Positions 1 through 57,608 of a stretch of 64,000 nt of DNA are shown here, in pieces. Where the stretch lies: the NCBI GenBank assembly GCA_043228905.1, contig JBHGNT010000009.1:4216001-4280000 (forward strand), given 5' to 3'. The number at the start of each line of letters is the position of its first letter. Position 1 is the stretch's first letter. The stretch is from Azolla caroliniana (taxonomy: Eukaryota; Plantae; Polypodiophyta). The notes under the pieces were generated by a model that was given only the letters and a program-made list of their open reading frames with translations, was not told the origin of the DNA and did not search any database. Position numbers and translations under genes: made by a program.

Positions 1-1563
1 GGCTCCGCCATGTGACTTCGTTTCTACTTGACACACGTCAGTGTGCACCAACTCCAATGGCGCGCTACGTCTCGTCGGTGGCCTTGAGTGGAAGGAGGTT
101 CGGTTCTGCTTACCGGCCAGGCAATCGGTGCACTTCTCCAGGTGCACATGCTTCACTGGAATAAGGTTGTCTTCTGCAAGCCTCTTCATCCCCTTCTCAC
201 TCATGTGGCACAGTCTCTTGTGCCACAGCTCACCGGCAGTGTCGGCTGCCACGTTCAGCTCCTCCGGACATAGCCGGGAATTCATCAGGTACAGTGTGTT
301 GACCTTCCGGGCCCGAGCCACTATCAGGCTGCCTTTGCTGAACTTCATGACACCGTTCCGGATGCTACCCGTGTAGCCTTCATCGTCTAGCCTCCCGGCC
401 GAAATCAGGTTCAATCGAACCTCCGGAACGTGTCGGACATCCTTCAACAGCATCTTGCATCCGGTTGATGTCATCAGCCACACGTCTCCTATGCCGGAAA
501 TCCGGCATGTACCTTCATTTCCCATCCGGACACAGCCGTGCTCACCGGCTGTGTAGGATGAGAAGTATTTCTTCTCCGGGGTCAGGTGGAACGACGGTCC
601 GGAATCGACCACCCAGGTCATCTCTTCACCGGCAAGGTTCAGCTCCCTCTCTTCGGTAATGAGCATTATCTCTTCTTCACTTGCCGCGAGTGCCGTCGTT
701 CCTTTCCGGTCCTGCCCTCGCCGATCCGGACCTCTCCGGTCCGTGGCTCCCCGGTATGCACCGTTTCGCTCCGGTGACTTCTTCGAATCGGTACCGTCGG
801 TTCCGTTGTCTTTCCGGAAATGCCGACAGTTCTTCTGGAAGTGCCCCGGCTTCCCACAGTAGAAGCATGTAGGTCTTCCCCTCGACTGCGACCGTGTCCC
901 CGACTTCTCCCGTCTTTGCGGACTCCGGTTCCGTTGTCTTCCCCGTTCCGATTCGGTAAGCAGCGCCTTCGAGTCGGAGACCGGTTCTTTATCTCTCCGA
1001 CGCGCTTCTTCATTTAGAATACTTGTCTTTACCGTTAGTAAAGACAAGTTCTCTTCCTTACAGGAGGTGCTGAGAGTAACTACCAAGTTCTCCCAGCTCT
1101 CCGGAAGGGTACACATCAGCATGATGGCTTGCATTGCGTCATCCAACGGGAACTTGATCGCCGCAAGCTGGTTCACGAATCCCATGAATGTGCTGACGTG
1201 TGCGACCATGCTCTCGCCGTCCCGGTACTTAAGATTCACTATCTTCCTCATCAGGGAGGTCCGGGTCAGAGCATTCTTCCTCTCATAAAGTCCGGACAGC
1301 TTTTGCCACATCTCATAGGCGTTCGTATCGTTCGCCACATGTTGCAGGACACTTACATCGACATATTGCCGGATCGTCGCTACGGATTTCCGGTTCAGGA
1401 GCTTCCACTCCGACTCTATTACCCCCTTGGGTATCTCGGCATTGTCGATCGGTTCGTACAGGTCTCGGACGATGAGAAGGTCTTCCATCTTTATCTTCCA
1501 GTCGGCGTAGTTCTGTGAGTTCAACACCATCATGCCCGGAGGCCCACTACCGCCGCCTTCCAT
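1..1563 (-). CDS. gag-pol: C1 copia gag-pol polyprotein, N-terminal part (Gag, CCHC zinc knuckle, protease, start of integrase); runs off the window edge
   Basis: ATG at 1563 (MEGGGSGPPGMMVLNSQNY...), CFYCGKPGHFQKNC knuckle, WVVDSG protease motif, WHKRLCH integrase zinc finger; collinear with the ORF starting at 57609. Confidence 0.9.
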   Translation of the reverse strand, partial: MEGGGSGPPGMMVLNSQNYADWKIKMEDLLIVRDLYEPIDNAEIPKGVIESEWKLLNRKSVATIRQYVDVSVLQHVANDTNAYEMWQKLSGLYERKNALTRTSLMRKIVNLKYRDGESMVAHVSTFMGFVNQLAAIKFPLDDAMQAIMLMCTLPESWENLVVTLSTSCKEENLSLLTVKTSILNEEARRRDKEPVSDSKALLTESERGRQRNRSPQRREKSGTRSQSRGRPTCFYCGKPGHFQKNCRHFRKDNGTDGTDSKKSPERNGAYRGATDRRGPDRRGQDRKGTTALAASEEEIMLITEERELNLAGEEMTWVVDSGPSFHLTPEKKYFSSYTAGEHGCVRMGNEGTCRISGIGDVWLMTSTGCKMLLKDVRHVPEVRLNLISAGRLDDEGYTGSIRNGVMKFSKGSLIVARARKVNTLYLMNSRLCPEELNVAADTAGELWHKRLCHMSEKGMKRLAEDNLIPVKHVHLEKCTDCLAGKQNRTSFHSRPPTRRSAPLELVHTDVCQVETKSHGGA

Positions 1564-1579
1564 TTTCTGTGTTAACCTC

Positions 1580-1591
1580 GCTCTGATACCA
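1580..1591 (-). promoter_or_regulatory. Primer binding site of C1 (tRNA-iMet)
   Basis: TGGTATCAGAGC on the minus strand, 3 nt after the LTR end ...TTAACA. Confidence 0.92.
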
Positions 1592-1705
1592 CTTTGTTAA
1601 ACACAGTGCTCGGCCACAACCGAGGAATAGGATCAACTCACAGAAAACAGGAAATACAAAATGCACGAAGACAATAGAGAGAAGAGTACACAGGATGTTT
1701 TACGT

Positions 1706-2497
1706 TGTCGCGAAGAAAACCGTCCATAGGCGGAATCGGCGCACCTAGGCGTGGGAACCGGTTCTTCACGCGCGCAAGCTCCAAGTAGTACATAAAAGCG
1801 AATTAGGAGGATAATCGGCAGGAACGGGCCCTAACACAAGTGGAGACAAACACCGCGCGAACAGTCTTTTCGGTCGCGCGCGCGAGTTAAGGAACTGTAC
1901 GAGTCGGCGGCGTAACTACGCGGATGCGTGAAGAACGGAGCGGATCCCTGTCCAAAAGGGACAGGGAATAAAGCTGACATGACGGCCTGCTCATCGGCCT
2001 ATATAAGGAGCAGGAAAGAGCTGTTGCAGATATCTCGCGCAGAGAGGACGAAGTGCTGTCGGACCGTTTCTGGACGCTTCTCTCTCTGTTTCCTTCCTTC
2101 TTGAGCTCCATAGCTTTCTGTGCAGGGTTCCGAGGAGGCTCGCGCTGTTTCGAGGAATGCCCGAGTGCTTCCGGCAGCACCTCCGACCTGCTACCCCGTT
2201 TGTGCGTCGAAGCGAACAGGCATCGGCATCTGTTCGCCGGCCTGTTCGGTTGTAACCAACCTGTGCCCCATCGAGGGTTGTAGTCGTGTTAGCCATTTTG
2301 TTAATACACATATTTAGTCATTCGCATCTGTCTGTGTCGGTGTCTGTTCGCGTTCTCCGTGCTGAAGGGCCGTGTCCCCGTGTATCCCCGGTCCTGCGTA
2401 GCCGGTACTCTCTCTTTCTCCTCCCTCGCTTGCTCTTTGGTTCGAGACCCCCGCGGTCCCGCCTCGATTCCACACGCACTTGCATAATATCTCGACA
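1706..2497 (+). repeat. E1 5' LTR
   Basis: Direct repeat of 8219-9010; TG...CA termini; TATATAAG box near 2000. Confidence 0.97.
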
Positions 2498-2501
2498 TCT
2501 T

Positions 2502-2519
2502 TGGTGAACCTGACGTGAA
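2502..2519 (+). promoter_or_regulatory. E1 primer binding site, tRNA-Trp (one mismatch)
   Basis: TGGTGAACCTGACGTGAA. Sister copies read TGGTGAACCCGACGTGAA, the complement of the plant tRNA-Trp 3' end as I recall it (...TTCACGTCGGGTTCACCA). Confidence 0.85.
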
Positions 2520-2541
2520 AGAGGCGGCAGAAGAGCAGAAG

Positions 2542-4668
2542 ATGAGGGGGTCGGATCTCGCAGAGGCCATGGCTTCGGCCGTGGATCGGATTGTAAACGC
2601 GCGCGAGATCACCGGTGCCCTCGACAGAGCTATTGAGGCGGTCGTCGGCACGATCGGCCGGTTCGATGGGAAGGATGCCACGAAGTATTTGGCGTCCTAC
2701 GGTGCAGAGATGCTGATGCGGGACATTCCGGAAGAAAGGCGTCTTGCCGGATTTCCCCGAGTGGCGATGCCGAGCATCCATGCGGAGGTGCTCGAGGTGC
2801 GGACGGAGAGCCGTACCTGGGAGGAGTTCGAAGGTCGGCTCCTAGAGAAATACGGGCTGGACGACGCGCTCCGGCTTTCGAAGCGAAGGTTCATGGAATG
2901 GGTGGAGTCCCCGGGGAAGGGAAGAAACGCGTCGGCGCTCCTCCGGGAGTTCGAGGAAAACTTTGCGCGCCTTTCGGCGCTCGACCGAACCATCCTGGAC
3001 ACGAGCCGGGTCTTGCTGTTTGTCAAGTCGGTCGACGAACGGGATCGGGAGCACGTGGGCCTCTTGCTGGAAACCGAAGACGGGCTCACTACCGACTGGG
3101 CGGCTGTCAGGAAGGTCTGTGGCCGTTTCGACAAACGGCGAGAATGGGCGGATAACGGTGCAACCGGGTCGGGCTCGGTCGCAGCAAGGAAGCTCGAACC
3201 AGCGCCACAGGTGCGAAAGGAAGAGACCCGAGAGTGGTTGGATACCGGTTCGGCTTCGACCGGCGTAGTCAGAGGCTCAACCGGAGGAGCGGCGCTGGAG
3301 GAATTGACGAAGGCGATAAAGGACCTCCAAATCGCGCAGGCCCGAAGGGAAGGAGGCGAACCGGCTCGTGACCGACGGCCGGCGGCAGGAAACAGGTGCA
3401 TGTGGTGCGATGAAGTCGGCCACATTCGGAAGGACTGCGGCGACTTCGCGGAGGCGCTGAGGAACGGGGTGGTGTACCTGTGGGAAGGACGGGTGCATGC
3501 CAGCGACACCCGAAGGGCCCTGAGCCGAAACGACGGAAAAGGTGGTATGAAAAGGTTGATGGAAGAGGCGGCGGCCCGACACGCGGAAACCGTTCACTAC
3601 TCGGCGTCGGCCGGCATTCGAGTCGGGGGCGGCGAGGCCCGAAGGGAAAGCAAAGCCGGGTTCTGGCCGACGATGCTGGAAGGCCTTGCCGGTGCAAGGC
3701 TAAAAGGGGAGGAATCGGACCGTGCGGAGAAACGGGTACGGGAGATGACCGGGTGGAGCGACCCGGTCGAGGAAAGGACGGGCTTCGTGGAAGCCGCTTG
3801 CCAGAACTACGAGGCTCTGGTGGAAGAGAAGCAGGTGGGGAGACCCGGGACGACCGGGCCCTCACAACGATACGAGACCCGGTCCGGGCCACGACGGGAC
3901 GAAGCCGGCGGGGCCGGTACGCAAGATAAACCCCAGAAGGGCGGGTACCGTCTGGGGACGGAGATAGAAAGGACCACGGACTTACGAAAGGTCCTGGAGG
4001 AACGGATCCTCGACAGCAAGGTGGAGCTGTCGTTACGAGAGGTGCTGGGAACTGCCAAGAAGGAGTTCCACGACTCCATCGTGGACTTGGTGAAACGGAA
4101 GAGGCTGTCGACGGAGACAGAACCGGAAAGACCGGTGGAAGTGCGGACGACGCACCTAGACGACATGGCGCTGGGAGACGAGTGGGCGGAAAGCCACTAT
4201 TCGAGACCACACTGGGCCCGAGCGACCACGGAAACCCCGGTGAAGATCGGCGATGTCCAGGAACCGGTGATAGCTTTGGTGGACCACGGATCGGAGATCA
4301 ATTTGATGTCCATGGACTTCTATAAGAAGGGCAAATGGCCGATCAACACCAAGCACGGGTGGAAAATAAGGGCAGCAACGCGCGCCACCGAGGAACTGCA
4401 CGGGGCCTGTCCGAATGTGCGAGTCAAGATCGGCGACGTCGAGATTGACCAGCACTTCTTCGTGCAGGAGACGTCTTCGCATCCGGTCATTCTGGGAGAG
4501 CCGTACATCACGGCGGCGCGAATGGAGACCAAAGTGCTGGACAATGGTTCGGCCTACGCAAGGGTCAAAAGCCAAGACGGGCGCCATTCGGTCCAGTTTC
4601 TGACGGTACGGCCGAACCACGAACGTAACCGCGATTCCCTCGGTTCCGAAAACCGAGAGGATTTTTAG
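2542..4668 (+). CDS. gag: E1 ORF1: Gag, CCHC zinc knuckle and aspartic protease
   Basis: Open frame from the first ATG at 2542. CMWCDEVGHIRKDC knuckle, ALVDHGSEINLM protease active-site motif, VILGEPY protease C-terminal motif. Confidence 0.92.
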   Translation: MRGSDLAEAMASAVDRIVNAREITGALDRAIEAVVGTIGRFDGKDATKYLASYGAEMLMRDIPEERRLAGFPRVAMPSIHAEVLEVRTESRTWEEFEGRLLEKYGLDDALRLSKRRFMEWVESPGKGRNASALLREFEENFARLSALDRTILDTSRVLLFVKSVDERDREHVGLLLETEDGLTTDWAAVRKVCGRFDKRREWADNGATGSGSVAARKLEPAPQVRKEETREWLDTGSASTGVVRGSTGGAALEELTKAIKDLQIAQARREGGEPARDRRPAAGNRCMWCDEVGHIRKDCGDFAEALRNGVVYLWEGRVHASDTRRALSRNDGKGGMKRLMEEAAARHAETVHYSASAGIRVGGGEARRESKAGFWPTMLEGLAGARLKGEESDRAEKRVREMTGWSDPVEERTGFVEAACQNYEALVEEKQVGRPGTTGPSQRYETRSGPRRDEAGGAGTQDKPQKGGYRLGTEIERTTDLRKVLEERILDSKVELSLREVLGTAKKEFHDSIVDLVKRKRLSTETEPERPVEVRTTHLDDMALGDEWAESHYSRPHWARATTETPVKIGDVQEPVIALVDHGSEINLMSMDFYKKGKWPINTKHGWKIRAATRATEELHGACPNVRVKIGDVEIDQHFFVQETSSHPVILGEPYITAARMETKVLDNGSAYARVKSQDGRHSVQFLTVRPNHERNRDSLGSENREDF

Positions 4669-4724
4669 AGAGGACTGCCAAGGCGTGGGGCCGCGACAGT
4701 CCGGATGCTCTGGGAAACCCCCAC
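4659..4724 (+). promoter_or_regulatory. Predicted -1 ribosomal frameshift signal (G GAU UUU, 6-nt spacer, stem/pseudoknot)
   Basis: GGATTTT at 4659-4665 directly precedes the ORF1 stop TAG, and the -1 frame is open into pol. Stem GGACTG (4672-4677) / CAGTCC (4697-4702); loop GTGGGG is complementary to CCCCAC (4719-4724). Confidence 0.8.
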
Positions 4725-7700
4725 ATCTGTACGATAAAACCGTGTACAATAGGTAGGAAATTTTGCTTCTCCGACAGCGGAGCATGTACGATGGTCGGCA
4801 TCACCGGCCGAGAGAAAACAAAGACGGAGGGGAGACTTCGGGCGTGCGGAGTTCTCGGCCCTGACGAAGGAATCAACGGAGCCGTGGAGGCAGTCTCCTT
4901 CGACGACACCTTGGGGATGCTGGGGAAGGTAGTCGAAGAAGACCTTAACGAAGACCGGACGATACCGGTATGTTCCGAAGAAATGTACGAAGTCATCGCG
5001 GACTTCGGTCGAGGGCTCGAGTCGGAACGGACGGCCCGAGTGAGCACCAAGTACAAGACGGTGGACCGGAAGGTGAGGCCAGTTGCGGCGCCCTTACCGG
5101 AGGGCAGCGAATCCCGAATCAAAGGGGTTGCATCGGACCCCAGCTTACGAGATCCGGCCTGCATAGGACACACCTTCACCAACGAGACGCTCCGCGAGCT
5201 GAAGATCGGTGGGGGCGGGTTCCTACTGCCGATGGAGGAAGACCGGTTTCGGAGAATGCTCGGAAGGCACGGGAAAGCCTTCGCATTCTCACCGGAGGAA
5301 ATCGGGTGCGTAGACCCGACGATCGTAGAGCCCATGGTGATGTTCACGGTACCGCATGTACCGTGGAATCTCAAGCCAATTTCGGTTCCGAGAGCTCACA
5401 TCCCGAAGTTGATGGAGCTGTTGAAGCAGAAAGTTGATATGGGCATTCTCGAGCCGTCGAGCGCCCCGTATTCAAACCGCTGGTTTACCGTGCCAAAGAA
5501 AAACGGATCATTGCGCTTCATTCAGGACCTGCAGCCGGTCAATAGAGTGACCATTCGGAATGCAGGGATCGGACCGACCATAGACGAGTTCGCGGAGGCC
5601 TTCGCCGGAAGGTCGATTTACTCGGTCGGTGATCTATACTCAGGGTATGACCAGTTCCAGCTAGCCGTGGAGAGCAGAGACATCACGACGATGCGAACTC
5701 CCCTCGGCCTCGTGCGGATGTGTACGCTGCCGCAAGGAGGGACCAACTCGGTGGCCCACATGGTGAATGCAATGAACAAGGTGCTGAGGGACTGCATCCC
5801 GGACATCACCATGCCGTTTCTAGACGACATCCCGATCAAGGGATGCCCGGTAGAAGAGAGGGACGAGACGATCGGGCCGGACGGATGCCGGCGATTCGTG
5901 GTAATGCACATCGACGACTGCGAGAAGGTGCTGCAAAGGCTAGAGGATGCGAGGCTCACCTTCTCGGGGGAGAAATCAGCCTTCGGGCAGTCGGAAATCA
6001 TGGTGGTCGGACACTTATGTGGGCCATATGGCCGGAAACCGTCTCCGGCAAAGGTAGAAGCCATCTCCGCGATGAAGCCCGTCTGCGGCTCGGTCACGGA
6101 AGTACGAAGATTCCTGGGGGCATGCGCATTCTACCACATATGGATCCCGCATTACGCCCACGTTGCGGAGCCGCTATACGGACTATTGAGGAAAGGGCGA
6201 AGATTCGAATGGCTAGACGAGCACACGGAGTCGGTCCGGAAGCTGAAGGAGGCTCTTTCGGCAGCACCGGCGCTCCGGAAGGCCGTCTACAGGAAGGGCA
6301 CCCCAGTGTACATAACGGTTGACACGAGTCCGACCGGAATCGGGTGGGTCGTCAACCAAGAAGACGAGGACGGCAATCGGTTTCCGATCCGATTCGGCGC
6401 GACGGTCCTCAGCGAACGGCAGCGAGGATACGCCCAGGTTAAACGCGAACTCTGGGGCATCGTTTCGGCGGTAAAGGCCGACAAGGACTATCTGATCGGG
6501 ACAGAGGTAATCATAGAGACGGACTGCATGCCGATTCTCGGCATGGTTTCCGGATGCGCGACGCCGGACCTGGCAATGCTCAGGTGGATAGCGTACATCA
6601 AGTCCCTGGACCCGGAAATACGACACATTTCCGGGAAAGACAACGCCATGGCCGACATGCTTTCAAGGGCGAGATTCGATGACGAGGGCGGCATGGTTTC
6701 GGAGGACGAAGAGGTCGGCGTGGACTTCTTCGAGACTGCGTATGTAACAACCGACGGAACAAGCACTCCGGCGCTTAACGACTTCGACGCGAGCAAGTAC
6801 GACGGGGAGTGGCTGCAGATCGGTGGGTTTTTGAAGACAATGACGCCCGATGCGTCGTGGACGAAGGACGAGGCCAACCGGATCCGGAAGAAAGCGTACC
6901 GGTTCTTTCTCCGGGACGGCTACCTATGGAAGCACCCGAAGAAGAGGGACGGCGCTCCGCTCCGGGTGGTGGCGATGAAGGAAGAACAGGAGGAGCTGCT
7001 GACGGCCTACCACGACAGCCCTTGGGCTGGACACCGTGGGACGTGGGCTACGTTTGAGAAACTGAAGGGGAAGTATTGGTGGTCGGGGCAGTACCGGGAC
7101 GTGCATCGGTTCGTGACAACTTGCGAGAGCTGTCAGATGCACTCCATAGTCCGACACCGGGACGAGCTTCACCCTACGTACCCTCCGACCATCCATTTCA
7201 AATGGATGGTAGATCTGGTGACGATGCCAATGGGGGTAGGACAGATGCGGTACCTGGTCCTAGCACGGGAGGATCTGACGAACCAGGTGGAAGGCTGAGC
7301 CCTCCTGAACAAAACGACCGCGGCCGTATGTCGATTCCTAATCGAGGACGTGATATGCCGGTACGGGTGCGTCGGGAAGATCGTGGCTGATCGAGGGGAG
7401 TTGGACACCGAAGAAGCCGCGGAGCTGTTCGACCGGCTCGGAGTTAAGCTCTCGCTCACCACTGCGTACAATCCGGAGGCGAATGGGAAGGTGGAGCGCG
7501 GACACGGGCCGATCGTCAAGGCGTTGGTTCGGGCATGCGGAGGCCAAGTCGGTAACTGGCCGCGACTGCTACCTTATGCTTTGTGGGCAGACCGGACCAC
7601 GCACAGTTCGGTAACCGGGTACATGCCGACGGAGCTCATGTTCGGCCAGAAGCCGATCATGCCGATGGAACGGACGATCTCCTCATGGGCAACGGTCGAT

Positions 7701-8147
7701 TGGAGGGACGAGATGAGCCGGGAGGAGTTGTTGGCCGCGCGTATACGACAACTCGAGCGGAGACCGGAGGACGTGGAACTGGCTACGGAGAGGCTCCGGG
7801 TGGCGAGGGCAAAGAACAAAGCCAGGTTCGACCGAACGCACCGGCTCCGACCGAAGAAGATCGAAGAAGGTGACTGGGTGCTCGTCTACGACAGCAGTCT
7901 CGACAACCAGCACCGAGCTACAAGGAAGTTCGCACGTAGGTGGTTCGGGCCTTATGTGGTACGGAGCGCCAATGACAACGGGACATATCACCTGGCGGAA
8001 CTTGACGGCACGAGAGTGGCGATACCGGTTGCAGGGAAGCGGATCAAAGCGTTCAAGAAGCGACATGACGACGAGCCGGACCCGGCTCTCCTAGTCAGCA
8101 GTGACGGACGATCCGGAAACGAGGAAGAACCGACGGGCGAGGAATGA
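4659..8147 (+). pseudogene. pol: E1 ORF2 pol (RT-RNaseH-integrase) with one premature stop in the integrase
   Basis: LPQGGTNS and PFLDD RT motifs, TVDTSPTGIG RNase H, H-H-C-C and D,D,E integrase, WFGPY. In-frame TGA at 7296-7298 where E2 has CGG; ORFs 4791-7298 and 7350-8147 are in the same frame. Confidence 0.93.
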
Positions 8148-8218
8148 AGACGGGCCGGTTTTCTCCGTCCCAACTCTCTTGGCGCATACCGGAGGATGCG
8201 CGGTTAGGTGGGGGCGGA

Positions 8219-9010
8219 TGTCGCGAAGAAAACCGTCCATAGGCGGAATCGGCGCACCTAGGCGTGGGAACCGGTTCTTCACGCGCGCAAGCTCCAAGTA
8301 GTACATAAAAGCGAATTAGGAGGATAATCGGCAGGAACGGGCCCTAACACAAGTGGAGACAAACACCGCGCGAACAGTCTTTTCGGTCGCGCGCGCGAGT
8401 TAAGGAACTGTACGAGTCGGCGGCGTAACTACGCGGATGCGTGAAGAACGGAGCGGATCCCTGTCCAAAAGGGACAGGGAATAAAGCTGACATGACGGCC
8501 TGCTCATCGGCCTATATAAGGAGCAGGAAAGAGCTGTTGCAGATATCTCGCGCAGAGAGGACGAAGTGCTGTCGGACCGTTTCTGGACGCTTCTCTCTCT
8601 GTTTCCTTCCTTCTTGAGCTCCATAGCTTTCTGTGCAGGGTTCCGAGGAGGCTCGCGCTGTTTCGAGGAACGCCCGAGTGCTTCCGGCAGCACCTCCGAC
8701 CTGCTACCCCGTTTGTGCGTCGAAGCGAACAGGCATCGGCATCTGTTCGCCGGCCTGTTCGGTTGTAACCAACCTGTGCCCCATCGAGGGTTGTAGTCGT
8801 GTTAGCCATTTTGTTAATACACATATTTAGTCATTCGCATCTGTCTGTGTCGGTGTCTGTTCGCGTTCTCCGTGCTGAAGGGCCGTGTCCCCGTGTATCC
8901 CCGGTCCTGCGTAGCCGGTACTCTCTCTTTCTCCTCCCTCGCTTGCTCTTTGGTTCGAGACCCCCGCGGTCCCGCCTCGATTCCACACGCACTTGCATAA
9001 TATCTCGACA
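8219..9010 (+). repeat. E1 3' LTR
   Basis: Direct repeat of 1706-2497, preceded by the PPT. Confidence 0.97.
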
Positions 9011-9364
9011 ACGTGGAAAACCCTAAATGGGAAAAACCACGGGAGTCCTCAAACTCCAACTATCACTATAAACAGAGATGTACAATGGTGAAGCTACAAG
9101 GCAACAACCTTGAGCTCACTGTCTTCGCCACAGGCGGCGGTAATACACAGAGGCAACGACCTCTTCGTCTCTCTCTCTCTCTCTCTCTCGGCTGCTCTCT
9201 TCACTCCCTCTAAGTGGAAAACAGAAAAATGAGCAACACTTACAAAACTGTTTGCCCTAAGTCATATTTATACACATATGACTTTCGGGCTATTTACAAA
9301 TATAGCTTCAAGGGCCCTTGGCAAACATATTCACAAATATGTCCCCGCATCCGGATCTCTCTCC

Positions 9365-16685: not shown

Positions 16686-16990
16686 GAGGTTGTTGCCTTT
16701 GTTGTAACTGCCTGGTGGCGAAGCGAGGGAGCAAGAGGTCGTTGCCTCTATGCCCCATTGTTGTAATCTTGACATAGTGATATTTTGCAGTCTAAGGGCT
16801 GCTGTGGTTTTTCCCATATTTGGGTTTTCCACGTTAACATCCAGTGCACTCTCTTCTTTACTGTTTCGTGTGTAGATACATCTCTCCACATCCCTGTTTT
16901 TTGTGATTGATCTAACGTCTCTGTTGTGGCCGAGCATAGCTTAGGAGAGCGTATTCCTATCAATTTGGTATCAGAGCGAAAACACAGAAA

Positions 16991-19900: not shown

Positions 19901-21074
19901 GGGATTTGTGGAGAAAGGGAAGGAGCACCTAGTTTTCCGGTTAAAAAAGAGCCTCTATGGGTTGAAGCAGGCTCCTTGGAAATGGTACCGGAAGTTCGAC
20001 ACCTTCATGACCAATCAAGGGTACCACAAGACGCAGGGCAATCACTGCGTATTTGTGAAGAAGTTCGAAGGTGGAGTCTTCCTGATACTCCTCTTGTACG
20101 TGGACGACATGTTGATCGTCGAACGAGACCAAGTCAAGATACGGATGCTGAAGAAGGCCCTGAATTGGACCTTCTCAATGAAAGACCTGGGTCCGGTAAG
20201 ACAGATGCTGGGGATGTATATCATTCGGGACCGGCCAACGAAGCAATCGTTGTTGTCACAAGAGAAGTATGTGACAAAGGTGCTTCAACAGTTCAACATG
20301 TCAGATGCGAAACCAGTCGGATCGACACTTCCGACAAACTGCAGGTTATCCGGTAAGCTAAGCCCGAAGACGAAGGCAGAGAAGGAGGATATGATGAAGA
20401 TACCATATGCCTCTACCGTTGGGAGCCTAATGTACGCAATGGTGTGTACCCGACCGGATTTCAGATACGCAGTCAGAGTGGTGAGCCGGTTTATGAGCAA
20501 TTCTAGCAAGGAGCACTGGAATGCGGTCAAATGGATACTCTGATACTTGAAGGGCACTTCGAATATGTGTCTCCGATTCGGCTCCGGTAAGCCTCAACTT
20601 GACGGTTTTACCGATTCGGATATGTCGGCTGATGTGGATACTAGCCGGTCTAAATTTGGGTATGTAATGACATATGCAGGGGGAGCTGTTTCGTGGTAGT
20701 CGAGGCTGCAGAAGATGGTTGCGTTGTCAACCACAGAGGCGGAGTACATGGCGGCTATGGAAGCCGGCAAGGAAATACTATGGATGAAGGACTTCATCGA
20801 AGAGCGAGGGATCCGACAAGAGGAATACCGGCTCTATTGTGATAGTCAAAGTGCCATCCACCTTGTGAAGAACGCAGCGTATCATTCCAGGACGAAGCAC
20901 ATCCAGCGGAGGTACCACTCGATTCGGGAGCGAGTAGAAGACTGAGAGTTCGTGTTGACGAAGATCCACACGGAGGAGAATGGGTCGGATATGCTGACCA
21001 AGGTGCTGACACCCAACAAGCTAGACGCATGCCGGAAGCGGATCAGATTGACGAGGCATCCCATACCGGAGTGA
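16991..21074 (+). pseudogene. gag-pol: C2 gag-pol with multiple stops and frameshifts
   Basis: Copia domain order Gag-PR-IN-RT-RH across ORFs 16991-17665, 18141-18467, 18480-18689, 18774-18956, 18978-19730, 19740-20543 and 20715-20945; LLYVDDM. Confidence 0.92.
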
Positions 21075-21377: not shown

Positions 21378-24300
21378 GAGGTTGTTGCCTCTGTTGTAAC
21401 CGCATGGTGGCGAAGCGAGGAAGGCATGGCTTCAGCTGTGGATCGGATAGTGAGTGCGCAGGCACCCTCGATAGGGCCATTGAAGCGATTGTCGGCACGA
21501 TAGGCCGGTTCGATGGAAAGGACGCCACGAGCTATTTGGAGGCCTATTGAGCTGAAATGGTGATGAGGGACATTCTGGAGGGCAGGCGACTAGCCGGATT
21601 CCCTTAGGTGGCAATGCCGAGCATCCATGCGGAGGTGCTCGAGGTACGGGCTAAGAGCCGAACCTGGGAAGAATTTGAAGGTCGGCTCCTTGAGAAATAC
21701 AGGCTTGATGACACTCTTTGGCTATTGAAACGGGACTTCATGGAATGGGTGGAGACCCCCGAAAAGGGGAGAAATGCGTCGGTGCTCCTCCGGGAGTTTG
21801 GAGAACGCTTCGTGCGTCTTTCGGCGTTGGACCGGACCGTACTGGACACAAGTCGTGTCCTATTGTTTGTTAAATCGGTGGACGTGAGGGACCGGGAGCA
21901 AGTGGGCCTCCTGCTGGAGACCGACGATAGGATGACGGTCAATTGGGCCGTGGTGAAGAGAGTTTGCGGCCATTTCGACAAACGACGAGATTGGGTTGAT
22001 AAAGGCTCGATGGGAGCAGGCTCTGTTGCGGCAAGGAAGCTCAAGGTACCCCCACCAGCGCGAAGGGAGGAGATCCGAGATTGGCTTGAGACCGGCTCAC
22101 TTCGACCAGCGTAGTCAAGGGCCCGTCTGGAGGTGCGGCTCTGGAGGAGCTAACTCAGATGGTGAGGGACCTCCAGATTGCACATGCACAGAGGGACAAC
22201 GGTGAACAAGCCTTTGATCGAAGGCCTCCGGCCGGGGATCGGTGCTTTTGGTGCGACGTGGTCAGCCACGCCCGGAAGGATTGCGGGGATTTCACCGAAG
22301 CAATAAGGTCTAACGTGGTGTACCTGTGGAACGGGCGTGTACACGCTAGCGAAACTTGGAGGGCCCTAGAACTGAACTTCGGACGAGGGGGAATGAAGCG
22401 GTTGATGGAAGAAGCGGCGGCTCGCCACGCGGAGATTGTCCACTACTTGGCGTCGGCAGGAATCCGGGTGGGGAGTGACGAAGTTCGGAAGACGAAGGAC
22501 TCCGGGTTCTAGCCGTTGACGCTAGAAGGCCTCGCCGGTGTACGATTGAGGAAAGACGAAGCGGACTGCGCGGAAAGACGGGTCCGGGAGGTAACCGGGT
22601 GGAGCGACCCGGTCGAAGAAAAGATGGGCTTCATAGAAGCCGTGTGCCAGAACTACAAGGTTTTGGTGGAAGAGAAGCGTGTGGGAAAGACCGGAGGGGC
22701 TGGACCCTCGCAACGGTATGAGGCCCGGTTCAGGCAGAGGCAGAATGACGCCGGTGCATCCGGCGCACCGGACAAGGCCAAGAAGGCCAGTTACCGGTTG
22801 AGCACAGAGATCGAAAGGACCACGGACCTACGAAAGGTCCTGGAGGAAAGGATCCTCGACAACAAAGTGGAGCTGTCGCTGAGAGAAGTGCTCGGTATCG
22901 CCAAAAAGGAGTTCCACGACTCCATCCTAGAGTTGGTGAAGCGGAAGAGGCTTTCGATGGAGCCGGAGCCGGAGAAGCCAATGGAGGTGCTAACGACGCA
23001 CCTAGAAGACATGGCCTTGGAAGAGGAGTTGGCGGAAAGCCACTATTTGAGGCTACATTGGGCTAGAGCCACTACGGAGACCCCCGTGAAGATCGGAGGT
23101 GTTCAGGAGCCGGTGGTGGTGTTGATAGACCACGGTTCGGAAATCAACTTGATGTCCATGGACTTTTACAAGAAGGGCAAGTGGCTGATCAACACCAAGC
23201 ATGGGTGGAAAATAGAAGCGGCGATGCGCGCCATGGAGGAGCTAGCCATAGCCTACCCAAATGTACGAGTGAAAATCGGTGATTTTGAGATCGATCAACA
23301 GTTCTTTGTGTAGGAGACATCCTTGCATCCGGTGATACTCGGGGAATCGTACATCACAGCGGCACGAATGGAGACAAATGTGCTGGACAACGGGTCGGCG
23401 TACGCGCGAGTCAAGAGCCAAGACGGGCGTCACTCCGTCCAGTTTTTGATGGTACGACCGAACCATGAACGAAACTGAGAGACCCTCAGCGGCGAAAGCC
23501 GAGGAGATTTTCTGAGAGGGCTATCAAGGCGTGGGGCCGCGATAGTCCGGACACTTCGGAAAAACCCCACACGTGTACGGTAGGCAGAAGAACCTGTAAC
23601 ATAGGTAGGAGGTTTTGGTTCTCTGACAGCGGAGGTTGTACAATGGCCAACGTCGTTGGCCCGGAGAAGAAGCGGGCAGAAGAGGAACTCAGGGCATGCG
23701 GAGTCCTCGGCCCCGGAGAGGAAATCAACGGAGCCGTGGAGGTGGTCTCTTTCGACGACACCTTGGGGAAGCTACGGGAGGTGTTCGGAGAGGGCCTTAG
23801 TGGAGACCGGACGATCCCGGTATGTACGGAAAAGATGTACGAAGTCATCGCTGACTTCGGTAGAGGACTCGAGTCGGATCGGATGGCCTGAGTGGATACG
23901 AAGTACAAGACTATGGACTGGAAGGTGAGGCAAGTCGTGGCACCCTTAATGAAGGGCAGCGAGTTACAGATGAAAGGGGTCACGTCAGACCCAAGTTTAT
24001 GAGATCCGGCTGGCATAGGACACCTATTCATCGACATAACGCTACGGGAGCTCAAGGTCGGAGGGGAGTGTGTGTGTGTGTTGGCTTTCTACTACCGGCG
24101 GAGGAGAACCGGTTTCAGAGAATGTTCGGGAGGCACGGAAAGGCCTTCGTATTCTCGTCGGAGGAGATTGGGTGCGTAGACCCGAGGATTGTGGAATCGA
24201 TGGTGATCTTCACGGTACCACATGTACCGTGGAATCTCAAACCGATTCAAGTACCCAGTGTTAGAGACATAGACTAATGTAGGCATGAGATAAGGATAGA

Positions 24301-27993: not shown

Positions 27994-30120
27994 ATGAGGG
28001 GGTCGGATCTCGCGGAGGCCATGGCTTCGGCTGTGGATCGGATTGTAAACGCGCGCGAGAGCACCGGTGCCCTCGACAGAGCTATTGAGGCGGTCGTCGG
28101 CACGATCGGCCGGTTCGATGGGAAGGATGCCACGAAGTACTTGGCGTCCTACGGTGCAGAGATGCTGATGCGGGACATTCCGGAAGAAAGGCGTCTTGCC
28201 GGATTTCCCCGAGTAGCGATGCCAAGCATCCATGCGGAGGTGCTCGAGGTGCGGACGGAGAGCCGTACCTGGGAGGAGTTCGAAGGTCGGCTCCTAGAGA
28301 AATACGGGCTGGACGACGCGCTCCGGCTTTCGAAGCGAAGGTTCATGGAATGGGTGGAGTCCCCGGGGAAGGGAAGAAACGCGTCGGCGCTCCTCCGGGA
28401 GTTCGAGGAAAACTTTGCGCGCCTTTCGGCGCTTGACCGAACCATCCTGGACACGAGCCGGGTCTTGCTGTTTGTCAAGTCGGTCGACGAGCGGGATCGG
28501 GAGCAAGTGGGCTTCTTGCTGGAAACCGAAGACGGGCTCACTACCGACTGGGCGGCTGTCAGGAAGGTCTGTGGCCGTTTCGACAAACGGCGAGAATGGG
28601 CGGATAACGGGGCGACCGGGTCGGGCTCGGTCGCAGCAAGGAAGCTCGAACCAGCGCCACAGGTGCGCAAAGAAGAGACCCGGGAGTGGTTGGAAACCGG
28701 TTCGGCTTCGACCGGCGTAGTCAGAGGCTCAACCGGAGGAGCGGCGCTGGAGGAATTGACGAAGGCGATAAAGGACCTCCAAATCGCGCAGGCCCGAAGG
28801 GAAGGAGGCGAACCGGCTCGTGACCGACGGCCGGCGGCAGGAAACAGGTGCATGTGGTGCGATGAAGTCGGCCACATTCGGAAGGACTGCGGCGACTTCG
28901 CGGAGGCGCTGAGGGACAGGGTGGTGTACCTGTGGGAAGGACGGGTGCATGCCAGCGACACCCGAAGGGCCCTGAGCCGAAACGACGGAAAAGGTGGTAT
29001 GAAAAGGTTGATGGAAGAGGCGGCGGCCCGACACGCGGAAACCGTCCACTACTCGGCGTCGGCCGGCATTCGAGTCGGGGGCGGCGAGGCCCGAAGGGAA
29101 AGCAAAGCGGGATTCTGGCCGACGATGCTGGAAGGCCTTGCCGGTGCAAGGCTTAAAGGGGAGGAATCGGACCGTGCGGAGAAACGGGTACGGGAGATGA
29201 CCGGGTGGAGCGACCCGGTCGAGGAAAGGACGGGCTTCGTGGAAGCTGCTTGCCAGAACTACGAGGCTCTGGTAGAAGAGAAGCGGGTGGGGAGACCCGG
29301 GACGACCGGGCCCTCACAACGATACGAGACCCGGTCCGGGCCACGACGGGACGAAGCCGGCGGGGCCGGTACGCAAGATAAACCCCAAAAGGGCGGGTAC
29401 CGTCTGGGGACGGAGATAGAAAGGACCACGGACTTACGAAAGGTCCTGGAGGAACGGATCCTCGACAGCAAGGTGGAGCTGTCGTTACGAGAGGTGCTGG
29501 GAATCGCCAAGAAGGAGTTCCACGACTCCATCGTGGACTTGGTGAAACGGAAGAGGCTGTCGACGGAGACAGAACCGGAAAGACCGGTGGAAGTGCGGAC
29601 GACGCACCTAGACGATATGGCACTGGGAGACGAGTGGGCGGAAAGCCACTATTCGAGACCACACTGGGCCCGAGCGACCACGGAAACCCCGGTGAAGATC
29701 GGCGATGTCCAGGAACCGGTGATAGCTTTGGTGGACCACGGATCGGAGATCAATTTGATGTCCATGGACTTCTATAAGAAGGGCAAATGGCCGATCAATA
29801 CCAAGCACGGGTGGAAAATAAGGGCAGCAACGCGCGCCACCGAGGAACTGCACGGGGCCTGTCCGAATGTGCGAGTCAAGATCGGCGACGTCGAGATTGA
29901 CCAGCACTTCTTCGTGCAGGAGACGTCTTCGCATCCGGTCATTCTGGGAGAGCCGTACATCACGGCGGCGCGAATGGAGACCAAAGTGCTGGACAATGGT
30001 TCAGCCTACGCGAGGGTCAAAAGCCAAGACGGGCGCCATTCGGTCCAGTTTCTGACGGTAAGGCCGAACCACGAACGTAACCGCGATTCCCTCGGTTCCG
30101 AAAACCGAGAGGATTTTTAG
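27994..30120 (+). CDS. gag: E2 ORF1: Gag, zinc knuckle, protease (intact)
   Basis: Uninterrupted ORF, near-identical to E1 ORF1. Confidence 0.94.
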   Translation: MRGSDLAEAMASAVDRIVNARESTGALDRAIEAVVGTIGRFDGKDATKYLASYGAEMLMRDIPEERRLAGFPRVAMPSIHAEVLEVRTESRTWEEFEGRLLEKYGLDDALRLSKRRFMEWVESPGKGRNASALLREFEENFARLSALDRTILDTSRVLLFVKSVDERDREQVGFLLETEDGLTTDWAAVRKVCGRFDKRREWADNGATGSGSVAARKLEPAPQVRKEETREWLETGSASTGVVRGSTGGAALEELTKAIKDLQIAQARREGGEPARDRRPAAGNRCMWCDEVGHIRKDCGDFAEALRDRVVYLWEGRVHASDTRRALSRNDGKGGMKRLMEEAAARHAETVHYSASAGIRVGGGEARRESKAGFWPTMLEGLAGARLKGEESDRAEKRVREMTGWSDPVEERTGFVEAACQNYEALVEEKRVGRPGTTGPSQRYETRSGPRRDEAGGAGTQDKPQKGGYRLGTEIERTTDLRKVLEERILDSKVELSLREVLGIAKKEFHDSIVDLVKRKRLSTETEPERPVEVRTTHLDDMALGDEWAESHYSRPHWARATTETPVKIGDVQEPVIALVDHGSEINLMSMDFYKKGKWPINTKHGWKIRAATRATEELHGACPNVRVKIGDVEIDQHFFVQETSSHPVILGEPYITAARMETKVLDNGSAYARVKSQDGRHSVQFLTVRPNHERNRDSLGSENREDF

Positions 30121-33100
30121 AGAGGACTGCCAAGGCGTGGGGCCGCGACAGTCCGGATGCTCCGGGAAAACCCCACATCTGTACGATAAAACCGTGTACA
30201 ATAGGTAGGAAATTTTGCTTCTCCGACAGCGGAGCATGTACGATGGTCGGCATCACCGGCCGAGAGAAAACAAAGACGGAGGGGAGACTTCGGGCGTGCG
30301 GAGTTCTCGGCCCTGTCGAAGGAATCAACGGAGCCGTGGAGGCAGTCTCCTTCGACGACACCTTGGGAATGCTGGGGAAGGTAGTCGAAGAAGACTTTAA
30401 CGAAGACCGGACGATACCGGTATGTTCCGAAGAAATGTACGAAGTCATCGCGGACTTCGGTCGAGGGCTCGAGTCGGAACGGACGGCCCGAGTGAGCACC
30501 AAGTACAAGACGGTGGACCGGAAGGTGAGACCAGTTGCGGCGCCCTTACCGGAGGGCAGCGAATCCTGGATTAAAGGGGTTGCATCGGACCCCAGCTTAC
30601 GAGATCGGGCCTGCATAGGACACACCTTCACCAACGAGACGCTCCGCGAGCTGAAGATCGGTGGGGGCGGGTTCCTACTGCCGGCGGAGGAAGACCGGTT
30701 CCGGAGAATGCTCGGAAGGCACGGGAAAGCCTTCGCATTCTCGCCGGAGGAAATCGGGTGCGTGGACCCGACGATCGTAGAGCCGATGGAGATATTCACG
30801 GTACCGCATGTACCGTGGAATCTCAAGCCAATTTCGGTTCCGAGAGCTCACATCCCGAAGTTGATGGAGCTGTTGAAGCAGAAAGTTGATATGGGCATTC
30901 TCGAGCCGTCGAGCGTCCCGTATTCAAACCGCTGGTTTACCGTGCCAAAGAAAAACGGATCATTGCGCTTCATTCAGGACCTGCAGCCGGTCAATAGAGT
31001 GACCATTCGGAACGCAGGGATCGGACCGACCATAGACGAGTTCGTGGAGGCCTTCGCCGGAAGGTCGATTTACTCGGTCGGTGATCTGTACTCAGGGTAC
31101 GACCAGTTCCAGCTAGCCGTGGAAAGCAGAGACATTACGACGATGCGAACTCCCCTCGGCCTAGTGCGGATGTGTACGCTGCCGCAAGGAGGGACCAACT
31201 CGGTGGCCCACATGGTGAATGCGATGAACAAGGTGCTGAGGGACTGCATCCCGGACATCACCATGCCGTTTCTAGACGACATCCCGATCAAGGGATGCCC
31301 GGTAGAAGAGAAGGACGAGACGGTCGGGCCGGACGGATGCCGGCGATTCGTGATGGCGCACATCGACGACTGCGAGAAGGTGCTGCAAAGGCTAGAGGAT
31401 GCGGGGCTCACCTTCTCGGGGGAGAAATCAGCCTTCGGGCAGTCGGAAATCATGGTGGTCGGACACTTATGTGGGCCATATGGCCGGAAACCGTCTCCGG
31501 CAAAGGTAGAAGCCATCTCCGCGATGAAGCCCGACTGCAGCTCGGTCACGGAAGTACGTAGATTCCTGGGGGCATGTGCATTTTACCACATATGGATCCC
31601 GCATTACGCCCATGTTGCGGAGCCGCTATACGGATTATTGAGGAAAGGGCGAAGATTCGAATGGCTAGACAAGCACAAGGAGTCGGTCCGGAAGCTGAAG
31701 GAGGCTCTCTCGGCAGCACCGGCGCTCCGAAAGGCCGTCTACGGAAAGGGCACCCCAGTGTACATAACGGTTGACACGAGTCCGACCGGAATCGGGTGGG
31801 TCGTCAACCAAGCAGACGAGGACGGCAATCGGTTTCCGATCCGATTCGGCGCGAAGGTCCTCAGCGAACGGCAGCGAGGATACGCCCAGGTTAAACGCGA
31901 ACTCTGGGGTATCGTTTCGGCGGTGAAAGCCGACAAGGACTATCTGATCGGGACAGAGGTAATCATAGAGACGGATTGCATGCCGATTCTCGGCATGGTT
32001 TCCGGATGCGCGACGCCGGACCTGGCAATGCTCAGGTGGATAGCGTACATCAAGTCCCTGGACCCGGGAATACGACACATTTCCGGGAAAGACAACGCCA
32101 TGGCCGACATGCTTTCGAGGGTGAGATTCGATGACGAGGGCGGCATGATTTCGGAGGACGAAGAGGTCGGCGTGGACTTCTTCGAGACTGCGTATGTAAC
32201 CACCGACGGGACAAGCACTCCGGCGCTTAACGACTTCGACGCGAGCAAGTACGACGGGGAGTGGCTGCAGATCGGTGGGTTTTTGAAGACAATGACGCCC
32301 GATGCGTCATGGACGAAGGACGAGGCCAACCGGATCCGGAAGAAAGCGTACCGGTTCTTTCTCCGGGACGGATACTTGTGGAAGCACCCGAACAGGAGGA
32401 ACGGCGTCCCGCTCCGGGTGGTGGCAATGAAGGAAGATCAGGAGGAGCTGCTAGCGGCCTACCACGACAGCCCTTGGGCTGGACACCGTGGAACATGGGC
32501 TACGTTTGAGAAACTGAAGGGGAAGTATTGGTGGCCGGGGCAGTACCAGGACGTGCATCAGTTCGTGACAACTTGCGAGAGCTGTCAGATGCACTCCATA
32601 GTCCGACATCGAGACGAGCTTCACCCTACGTACCCTCCGACCATCCACTTCAAATGGATGGTAGATCTGGTGACGATGCCAATGGGGGTAGGACAGATGC
32701 GATACCTGGTCCTAACGCGGGAGGATCTGACGAACCAGGTGGAAGGCCGGGCCCTTTCGAACAAAACAACCGAGGCCGTATGCCGGTTCCTAATCGAGGA
32801 CGTGATATGCCGGTACGGGTGCGTCGGGAAGATCGTGGCTGACCGAGGGGAGTTGGACGCCGAAGAAGCCGCGGAGCTGTTCGACCGGCTGGGAGTCAAG
32901 CTCTCGCTCACCACTGCGTACAATCCGGAGGCGAATGGAAAGGTGGAGCGCGGACACGGACCGATCGTCAAGGCGTTGGTTCGGGCATGCAGAGGCCGAG
33001 TCGGTAACTGGCCGCGGCTGCTACCTTATGCTTTGTGGGCGGACCGGACCACGCACAGTTCGGTAACCGGGTACATGCCGACGGAGCTCATGTTCGGCCA

Positions 33101-37600: not shown

Positions 37601-38162
37601 CACCGATTTTGAGCTCTCGGAGCGTCTCGTCGGTAAAGGTGTGTCCTATGCAGGCCGGATCTCGTAGACTAGGGTCCGATGCAACCCCTTCGATTCTCGA
37701 CGCGCTGTCCTCCGGTAAGGGTGCCGCGACTGGCCTTACCTTCCGGTCCACAGTCTTGTACTTGGTGCTCACGTGGGCCGTCCGAACCGACTCGAGCCCT
37801 CGACCGAAGTCCGCGATGACTTCGTACATCTCCTCGGAACACACCGGTATCGTCCGGTCTTCGTTAAGGCCTTCTTCGACTACCTTTCCCAGCATTCCCA
37901 AGGTGTCGTCGAATGAGACCGCCTCCACGGCTCCGTCGATTTCCTCGTCAGGGCCGAGAACTCCGCACGCTCGAAGTCTCCCCTCCGCCTTTCTCTTCTC
38001 TCGGCCGCCGATGCCGACTGTCGTGCACGCTCCGCTGTCGGAGAACAAAAATTCCCTACCTATGGTACAAGGTTTCTTCGGTTTTATCGTACAGGTGTGG
38101 GGTTTTCCCGGGGTGTCCGGACTGTCGCGGCCCCACGCCTTGGCAGTCCTCTCTAAAAATCC
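34665..38162 (-). CDS. pol: E3 ORF2 pol (RT-RNaseH-IN), intact
   Basis: 1127-aa ORF at 38048-34665; slippery site GGATTTT at 38162-38156. Confidence 0.94.
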   Translation of the reverse strand, partial: GFLERTAKAWGRDSPDTPGKPHTCTIKPKKPCTIGREFLFSDSGACTTVGIGGREKRKAEGRLRACGVLGPDEEIDGAVEAVSFDDTLGMLGKVVEEGLNEDRTIPVCSEEMYEVIADFGRGLESVRTAHVSTKYKTVDRKVRPVAAPLPEDSASRIEGVASDPSLRDPACIGHTFTDETLRELKIGGGGFLLPAEVDRFRRMLGRHGKAFAFSPEEIGCVDPTIVEPMVIFTVPHVPWNLKPIPVPRAHIPKLMELLRQKVDMGILEPSSAPYSNRWFTVPKKNGSLRFIQDLQPVNRVTIRNAGIGPTIDEFAEAFAGRSIYSVGDLYSGYDQFQLAVESRDITTMRTPLGLVRMCTLPQGGTNSVAHMVNAMNKVLRDCIPDITMPFLDDIPVKGCPVEERDETIGPDGCRRFVATHIDDCEKVLQRLEDARLTFSGEKSAFGQSEIMVVGHLCGPYGRKPSPAKVEAISAMKPDCSSVTEVRRFLGACAFYHIWIPHYAHVAEPLYGLLKKGRRFEWLDEHAESVRRLKEALAAAPALRKAAYGKGTPVFITVDTSPTGIGWVMNQEDEDGNRFPIRFGAKVLSERQRGYAQVKRELWGIVSAVKADKDYLIGTEVIIETDCLPILGMVSGCATPDLAMLRWIAYIKSLDPEIRHISGKDNAMADMLSRARFDDEGGMVSEDEEVGVDFFEAAYITTDGMGTPALNEFDASKYDGEWLQIGGFLKTMTPDASWTKDEANRIRKKAYRFFLRDGHLWKRPKKRNGVPLRVVAMKEEQEELLAAYHDSPWAGHRGTWATFEKLKGKYWWPGLYRDVHRFVSTCESCQMHSIVRHRDGLHPTYPPTIHFKWMVDLVTMPMGVGQMRYLVLAREDLTNQVEGRALQNKTTAAVCRFLIEDVICWYGCVGKIVADRGELDAEEAAERFDRLGVKLSLTTAYNPEANGKVERGHGPIVKALVRACGGRIGDWPRLLPYALWADRTTHSSVTGYMPAELMFGQKPIMPIERTISSWATVDWRNEMSREELLAARIRQLERRPEDVALATEKLRVARTKNKARFDRTHRLRPKRIDEGDWVLVYDSSLDNQHRATRKFARRWFGPYTVQSANDNGTYHLAELDGTRIAIPVAGKRIKAFKKRHDDEPDPILLDSSDDRSEAEEGPAGEE

Positions 38163-45200: not shown

Positions 45201-45801
45201 GGTCTTCTTCCGCCTGCAGTAGGAACCCGCCCCCACCTACCTTGAGCTCCCGTAGCGTTCTATCGGTGAAGGCGTGCCCTATGCAGGCCGGATCTCATAA
45301 ACTGGGGTCCGACGCGACCCCCTTGATTCGTAACTCGCTGCCCTCCGGTAAGGGTGCCGCGACTGGCCTTACCTTCCGGTCCACAGTTTTGTACTTCGTG
45401 TTAACCCGGGCCGTCCGATCTGACTCGAGCCCTCGACTGAAGTCCGCGATGACTTCATACATCTCTTCTGAACAAACCGGTATCGTCCGTTCCTCTTTAA
45501 GGCCCTCTCCGACCACCTCTCGCCATATTCCGAAGGTATCGTCGAAGGAGACCGCCTCCACGGCCCCGTTGATTTCCTCGCTGGGCCCGAGAACTCCGCA
45601 CGCCCGAAGTCGCTCTTCCAGCCTTGTCTTTTCTCAGCCTACGACGCCAACTATCGTACACCCTCCGTTGTCGGAGAAACAAAACTTCCTACTTATGGTA
45701 CAAGTTTTCATCGGTTTTGCTTCTATCGTACATTTGTGGGGTTTTCCCGGAGTGTCCGGACTGTCGCGGCCCCACGCCTTGGCAGCCCTCTCTAAAAATC
45801 C
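42229..45801 (-). pseudogene. pol: E4 pol (stop at ~45295, small in-frame deletion in RT); the frame runs through the PPT into the LTR
   Basis: 986-aa ORF at 45189-42229 plus upstream pieces; RLEVSREKS versus RLEDARLTFSGEKS in E1/E3. Confidence 0.92.
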
Positions 45802-57128: not shown

Positions 57129-57608
57129 GGAGAGAGATCCGGATGCGGGGACATATTTGTGAATATGTTTGCCAAGGGCCCTTGAGGCTATATTTGTAAA
57201 TAGCCCGAAAGTCATATGTGTATAAATATGACTTAGGGCAAACAGTTTATGTTGTTGCTTATTTTTCTGTTTTCACTCAGAGAGAGTAAAGAGAGCAGCC
57301 GAGAGAGAGAGACGAAGAGGTCGTTGCCTCTGTGTATTGCCGCCGCCTGTGGCGAAGACAGTGAGTTCAAGGTTGTTGCCTTGAAGCTTCACCATTGTAA
57401 ATCTCTGTTCATAGTGATAGTTGGAGTTTGAGGACTCCCGTGGTTTTTTCCCATTTAGGGTTTTCCACGTAAAATATCTTGTGTACTCTTCTTTCTATTG
57501 TCTTCGTGTACTTTGTATTTCCTATTTTCTGTGAGTTGATCCTATTCCTCGGTCGTGGCCGAGCACCGTGAGCAACAAATTGGTATCAAAGCGACGGTAA
57601 CACAGAAA

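Follow-up and report, generated by a model that had tools for sequence, protein, structure and literature searches.

The stretch of DNA analyzed here in its entirety (the window, 64 kb) is a nest of LTR retrotransposons, and one of them, E1 (1706-9010), raises the question of how an element that carries Gag and protease in one open reading frame (ORF) and reverse transcriptase, RNase H, and integrase in another, overlapping it in the -1 frame, expresses both. The junction of the two, between Gag-protease and Pol, is the segment 4659-4724. The features of the element, of the junction, and of related junctions are collected in Table 1.

Table 1. Positions of E1 features, of the junction cassette and its copies in the window, and of the sister-clade cassettes
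Feature	Position	Strand	Remarks
Target-site duplication ACGT, 4 bp, NCGN type	1702..1705		second copy at 9011-9014
5' LTR of E1, 792 bp	1706..2497	+	99.87% identity to 8219-9010
Primer-binding site, complement of tRNA-Trp 3' end	2502..2518	+	one mismatch in E1, none in E3
ORF1, Gag + aspartic protease, ending E-D-F-stop	2542..4668	+	
ORF2, RT-RNase H-integrase, -1 frame	4629..8147	+	E1 stop at 7296-7298
Hairpin adjoining the heptamer on its 5' side	4636..4661	+	U-A vs C-G change, E1/E4 vs E5 subfamilies
Slippery heptamer G_GAU_UUU, ORF1 frame	4659..4665	+	
ORF1 stop TAG and spacer, 6 nt up to stem 1	4666..4671	+	
Stem 1 (4672-4679 with 4695-4702) and loop, 31-nt span	4672..4702	+	ungapped in 29/29 families
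Stem 2 of a predicted H-type pseudoknot, loop GTGGGG (4685-4690) with CCCCAC (4719-4724)	4685..4724	+	
3' LTR of E1	8219..9010	+	
Cassette in E5	23505..23570	+	heptamer and stop decayed, both stems intact
Cassette in E2	30111..30176	+	pol open 1172 codons
Cassette in E3	38097..38162	-	pol open 1173 codons; early stop in ORF1
Cassette in E4, decayed copy	45736..45801	-	
Sister-clade cassettes	L142:2836-2904; L148:2498-2566		
Genomic examples, L142 family	C8:1484837-1484880; C16:14466888-14466931		

E1 (7,305 bp) is a young Ty3/gypsy LTR retrotransposon with Phygy-type hallmarks: it has two LTRs, a target duplication, and the domain order Gag-PR-RT-RH-IN, and coding sequence occupies its internal part. 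The Gag portion of ORF1 contains a zinc-knuckle-like CX2CX4HX4C motif and DUF4100, and the protease portion has a DHG motif at about 4282-4290, its Pfam match being weak (E 0.005) and found on the E4 copy; no chromodomain match was found in E1-E4. The NCGN-type 4-bp duplication (ACGC in E3), the tRNA-Trp primer site, and the coding sequence filling the internal part are all traits of Phygy elements in the available portion of PMC6317226, and the length of E1 is slightly below the Phygy range of 7,656-9,968 bp, which is drawn from one species. The closest named homologues are Physcomitrium patens and Riccia proteins, with Adiantum entries also present, and those of Physcomitrium are about 70% identical over the protease region; taken by itself, this set of homologues would point to a bryophyte as the likely host. 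ARAGORN identified the tRNA matching the primer site as tRNA-Trp(CCA) at four of the four own-genome loci scanned (from 63 pattern matches), all of them outside motif clusters. Many of these 63 genome-wide matches to the tRNA-Trp-like 3' motif are spaced about 0.9-1.3 kb apart, and the clusters at C8:17796786-17823371, C16:4989495-5105657, and C5:10105608-10112201 may be tandem arrays of the tRNA that primes this abundant element.

As for the neighbors of E1 in the window, E3 (33894-41021; LTRs 99.86% identical) is a reverse-oriented insertion, made at an NCGN site, within the 3' LTR of E2. Ty1/copia elements are present at 1-1705 (-), 16940-20543 (+), and 57540-61682 (+), and E1 immediately adjoins the 5' part of the first of them. 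Another kind of gypsy element, carrying protease-RT-RH together with a chromodomain, is chromovirus-like and is found at 50592-54169 (+) and 26315-27109 (-).

The initial annotation had placed a -1 frameshift cassette at the junction, with ORF1 ending E-D-F-stop in E1-E4, and GGATTTTTAG is indeed found exactly at 4659 (+), 30111 (+), 38162 (-), and 45801 (-). The stem GGACTG/CAGTCC, the loop GTGGGG, and the downstream CCCCAC are present as described, and so are the stem variants of E4 (GGGCTG/CAGTCC) and E5 (GGGCTA/TAGTCC). The six pairs claimed for stem 1 hold, but its real length is 8 positions, one of them a C-A mismatch in E1. The -1 frame runs into pol in E1 and E2, as described, with a premature stop within the integrase in E1. 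E3 likewise has a complete pol (1173 aa) in this frame, which is decayed in E4. The heptamer of E5 was correctly reported as degraded, and 25/30 best-hit loci of the E5 subfamily retain GGATTTTTAG. That 3.4 chance matches to the site would be expected at one mismatch is uninformative, since the four sites are homologous copies within one element family. Repeats within the window reflect homology, so the real test of the cassette is divergence.

Homologous Gag-PR proteins were collected by a search with the protease region, the cassette not being used, and 120 are listed, Physcomitrium, Riccia, and Adiantum entries among them. Ninety-eight of these 120 listed homologues stop within 25 residues of the E1 end, with C-termini DF (63), GF (3), NF (2), or DF/GF five residues before the stop (25). 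Thus, 93/98 fit a G_GAU_UUY, G_GGU_UUY, or A_AAU_UUY site, while of the other five listed proteins two end in VFD/VFY and three end short. At the DNA level, metagenome contigs scanned by protein alignment yielded 80 loci; the protease end was present in 72 of them, and 60 of these had a pol match as well; 8/80 loci were dropped for want of a protease end and 12 for want of a pol match (including two without the heptamer and two that were too short). The 60 loci were clustered at 90% identity into 29 families, which are 58-90% identical upstream (median 66% nucleotide identity). Since related metagenome assemblies supplied most of the 80 loci, the range of hosts covered by DNA is narrow.

Relative to ORF1, pol lay in the -1 frame in 58 of the 60 loci, in the +1/-2 frame in 2, and in frame in none. 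All 60 had a slippery-type heptamer in the ORF1 frame (51 GGATTTT, 4 GGATTTC, 2 GGGTTTT, 1 GGTTTTC, and 2 GGTTTTT), as scored with a regular expression drawn up after the junctions had been inspected. In five families (L134, L162, L165, L166, and L168), the ORF1 stop lies 15 nt past the heptamer, within stem 1, the proteins ending in DF/GF plus five residues, and the same ending is seen in Physcomitrium and Adiantum protein records. Since the stop is displaced into stem 1 there with no change in the register of heptamer, spacer, and stem, it is not the fixed element of the cassette. As expected of a -1 frameshift signal, the junction has a slippery heptamer in the upstream frame, a downstream ORF in the -1 frame, a spacer within 5-9 nt, and a conserved 3' structure.

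We determined the conservation of that structure in a MAFFT alignment of the 29 families to which no fitting was applied, and the 31-nt span of stem 1 had no gaps in 29/29 rows. Over 12 pairs, 81% of the cells were paired, compared with 72.8% after shuffling (0/500) and 28-42% in slid controls, and 10 of the 12 pairs change on both sides. Against a tree-aware null, with columns simulated independently on the protein tree, the 8-pair core of stem 1 had 226/232 cells paired (null mean, 201; 0/1000) and 10 coupled changes (null, 3.2; 2/1000). For stem 2, 153/174 cells were paired (7/1000), with 16 coupled changes versus 5.8 under the null (0/1000); here the register was fitted, each row having a free offset of its own, and this favors stem 2. 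Covariation over many copies, which the initial annotation had named as a check, was found in both stems, above the tree-aware null. The caveat it had attached, that C>T decay could mimic covariation, did not hold: one pair is A-U in 21/29 families, the G-C of E1 being its rare state (1/29), some changes are transversions (G-C to U-A), and coupled changes beyond the tree-aware null are not explained by such decay.

The structure rests on this comparative evidence, since lone folding was unremarkable and Rfam offered no match at E <= 10. In single-sequence folding the stability was not unusual relative to shuffles (E1 z = -1.27), and the minimum-energy fold of E3 contained stem 2 alone in preference to stem 1. 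A hairpin on the 5' side of the heptamer is strong in about a third of the families and shows a compensatory change between subfamilies; as a lineage-wide core signal it was rejected, with z <= -2.2 in 9/29 families only and a mean z of -1.1 versus -0.2 in controls. An extra pair is possible below stem 1 (column 13) in 11/29 families, which would make the effective spacer 5 nt in -1 families as well.

A genuine -1 shift stimulated by stem 1 alone, as a stem-loop, with stem 2 incidental or serving another step, is an unlikely alternative to a pseudoknot. Stem 2 is short (4-8 bp), the offset of its 3' strand was fitted, and many families are individually nonsignificant: its duplex energy differed from that of shuffles at a P of <0.05 in 11/29 families, and the E1 type gave a P of 0.14. 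Yet each loop pairs better with its own partner than with swapped ones (15.3 versus 13.0; permutation P = 5e-5, a value that ignores relatedness), and the loop and the 3' strand change together in the 16 rows with divergent loops (own, 14.9; swapped, 11.3). The excess of coupled changes in stem 2 argues in the same direction, as does the observation that the residues encoded by stem 2 differ freely.

Where the reading frame would change can be narrowed from the pattern of stop codons. From the heptamer to KYKT, the first of the conserved Pol motifs, the pol frame had 0 stops in 3,279 codons in 26/29 families (three lack the motif), while the other two frames had 531. Upstream of the heptamer, the pol frame closes 1-3 codons away in 8/29 families, leaving the heptamer as the place of the crossover. 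No Met is conserved in the pol frame, the first one being at codon 1-109. Production of Pol by transcriptional slippage on the T-run or by reinitiation at a downstream AUG is scarcely credible, for although five Ts stand at the site in most families, the run is just 3-4 nt in 7/29, polymerase slippage requires longer runs, 0 indels at the run were seen in 131 reads, and a conserved Met is missing.

It is also very improbable that Pol comes from an RNA that is spliced or subgenomic, as for Ogre, EVADE, and BARE1, with the heptamer being incidental and the knot acting in splicing, in packaging, or in some other step involving the RNA. Splicing is a documented route to the Gag:Pol ratio in plant elements, according to the accessible parts of PMC5580714 and, for Ogre, PMC6317226, and several Riccia gene models (P0018, P0025, P0039, P0049, P0050, and others) fuse Gag-PR to Pol with the junction left out, the skipped length differing from model to model and the place being similar in three. 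These models, known from protein records only, skip 172-281 residues between landmarks, compared with 279 in E2; the variation resembles bridging by a predictor rather than a fixed intron, another Riccia protein ends in DF, and the fused models are probably predictor artifacts at a frameshift. Moreover, the pol frame is stop-free over about 125 poorly conserved codons from the heptamer, which is not intron-like, and the heptamer varies among slippery types only. The 131 poly(A) reads of related elements that span the junction show no joint and no indel at the T-run, but they are weak evidence, being shallow, mostly 90-95% alike (not E1 itself), and about equal on both strands, and they may include DNA.

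The best reading of the junction, with a probability of roughly 0.88 in our estimate from the sequence, is -1 ribosomal frameshifting on G_GAU_UUU, stimulated by a covarying 3' pseudoknot and placed after the protease. The frameshift predicted by the initial annotation is supported by the covariation across 29 families, by the pol frame being open past the heptamer and closing shortly before it in 8/29 of them, and by the DF/GF/NF site in 93/98 listed proteins. We infer that the RNA would fold as a knot in vivo and that most ribosomes would stop at UAG and release Gag-PR, whereas a ribosome with GAU in the P site and UUU in the A site would meet the knot 6 nt downstream. A minority would then slip by -1, from GAU to GGA in the P site and from UUU to UUU in the A site, and go on to make Gag-PR-RT-RH-IN. 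The share of slippage, that is, its efficiency, would set the ratio of structural to enzymatic products, with Gag-PR in excess.

The signal is abundant in this genome. Ninety genomic copies, with loci chosen as best hits, fell into three subfamilies, and GGATTTTTAG was present in 30/30, 27/30, and 25/30 of them, respectively. A degenerate pattern for the heptamer and stem 1 (G_GAU_UUY, 6 nt, and the 31-nt stem layout) matched 3,019 places genome-wide, and the reversed control of this pattern had 0 matches in the genome. With a 5-nt spacer, the -1 pattern was found in 11 scattered copies, compared with the 3,019 with 6 nt.

L142 and L148, the two loci whose pol is in the +1/-2 frame, group as sisters in the tree with a support of 100/100. 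They have the knot common to the -1 families, preceded by AG_GUU_UUU and a spacer of 5 nt, 1 nt shorter, and their +1/-2-frame pol is open for 1153 and 1100 codons, respectively, and their -1 frame meets a stop after 1 and 6. The two Pol proteins are 82% identical, with a dS of 1.18, a dN of 0.10, and a dN/dS of about 0.09, and on these sequences sister-clade pol is judged to be under purifying selection. The L142 family has 40 scored hits in this genome, at 95-97% identity; pol is in the +1/-2 frame in 12/12 genomic loci examined, and with a wider pattern the sister-clade copies genome-wide number 85 with a 5-nt spacer and 0 with 6 nt. Three of the six copies fetched have 100% identical LTRs and both ORFs open, and the NCGN duplication and the tRNA-Trp site are visible in most of the six. 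An assembly slip or a dead single-base deletion was rejected as the source of this layout, given 78 exact genomic copies, 0 with an extra T, six protein records that end identically in QVFD, and the selection on pol. One contig (L157), itself decayed, has GG_GUU_UUC, a 6-nt spacer, and pol in the -1 frame.

We lean, by sequence comparison, toward the prediction that the sister clade uses -2 slippage, on AG_GUU_UUU with the shared knot and the shorter spacer. Expression of its pol by a +1 shift instead, or the clade being a broken passenger of the Pol of -1 families, is doubtful. Judged from the sequence, re-pairing of the P-site tRNA-Val would be poor with a -2 shift (GUU to AGG) and would improve with +1 (GUU to UUU), and the effective 5-nt spacer that is possible in 11/29 families would not be peculiar to the clade; in addition, the arterivirus -2 site needs a protein stimulator (PMC7618472, in the part available). 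The +1 route is opposed by AG_GUU_UUU being a documented arterivirus -2/-1 site and by shorter spacers favoring -2, both from the same excerpt, and by the -2 route preserving the F-x-x-R-T junction length of the -1 families. A passenger would not be expected to keep pol open over 1153 and 1100 codons at such a dN and dS, nor to include copies with identical LTRs and both ORFs open. Taken as a whole, the picture that we favor by a little is that Phygy elements of seed-free plants have a lineage-wide, pseudoknot-driven -1 shift after the protease and that in one thriving clade the same knot would have been switched to an RNA-only -2 shift, through a change of the slippery site to AG_GUU_UUU and a spacer shortened by one base. 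The initial annotation had overlooked three things: the +1/-2 sister clade, the 5' hairpin, and the placement of the shift after the protease.

The ORF organization of Phygy is listed as "ND" in PMC6317226, and this gap is filled by a specific, testable signal with more than 3,000 copies in one genome, which also accounts for the inconsistent bridging of the junction by gene predictors. In the literature covered (titles and the beginnings of abstracts, with most subscription papers outside the coverage), no description of a Phygy frameshift signal or of a -2 signal in a retrotransposon was found; what we report is probably a known type of mechanism in a lineage and a position without a description found there. 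For a plant frameshift knot, the families are a large natural source of covariation, and they also supply matched natural -1 and predicted -2 cassettes that share one knot, so that the shorter-spacer rule, which comes from engineered constructs in which spacers 1-2 nt shorter favor -2 (PMC7618472, excerpt), can be tested on natural pairs. If the prediction is true, the sister clade is a case of a retroelement with a -2 signal that is natural and made of RNA only, and the mRNA-tension model of shift direction can be tested on an evolutionary change.

Among known systems, most plant LTR elements are said to have a single ORF or to be regulated by splicing in the parts of PMC5580714 and PMC12786077 at hand, and those with split frames known at the time were all +1, as far as the excerpt of a 2016 review (PMC5009743) goes. 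Split frames in elements of seed-free plants are not new in themselves, since Tcn1 and Selgy have overlapping GAG and PROT-POL ORFs (PMC6317226). In the table of that paper, no lineage has GAG-PROT overlapping RT-RH-INT as its prevailing layout, which is the layout of E1. Ogre/Retand elements share with E1 the break between protease and RT (GAG-PROT split from RT-RH-INT) but have an intron or an in-frame stop there, according to the accessible text, whereas E1 has overlapping frames and a slippery site.

The -1 cassettes of retroviruses, animal and fungal gypsy elements, PEG10, and PNMA3 resemble that of E1 in joining gag- and pol-side ORFs by a heptamer, a spacer of 5-9 nt, and a 3' structure (excerpts of PMC5009743 and PMC7618472). 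E1 differs from them in its plant host, in the noncanonical first triplet G_GA, which is an accepted one (PMC5009743, same excerpt), and in the shift after the protease. Umbraviruses and dianthoviruses, such as pea enation mosaic virus RNA2 or red clover necrotic mosaic virus, share with it G_GAU_UUU, a nearby stop, and plant ribosomes. The likeness to dianthoviruses drawn by the initial annotation is sound for the heptamer but not for the stimulator, which in the viruses involves long-distance pairing (with a stem-loop in red clover necrotic mosaic virus) and in E1 is a predicted local, two-stem H-type knot, again by the available part of PMC5009743. There was no indication of shared ancestry with the viral elements, the search of viral_contigs giving no relative and that of Rfam no match.

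The sister clade has its counterpart in the nsp2 -2/-1 site of an arterivirus (PRRSV), which has the same 8 nt, AG_GUU_UUU, and a downstream ORF in the +1/-2 frame. The PRRSV site, in the portion of PMC7618472 available, is stimulated by proteins located on unstructured RNA at a distance of 10 nt, whereas the sister clade has a predicted RNA knot 5 nt away; the protein-bound C-rich stimulator 10 nt downstream is absent from the clade, and stem 1 holds its place. Unlike in PRRSV, the -1 frame closes after 1-6 codons. By this analogy, the sister-clade signal is predicted to resemble the arterivirus system in its working, without being a member of it.
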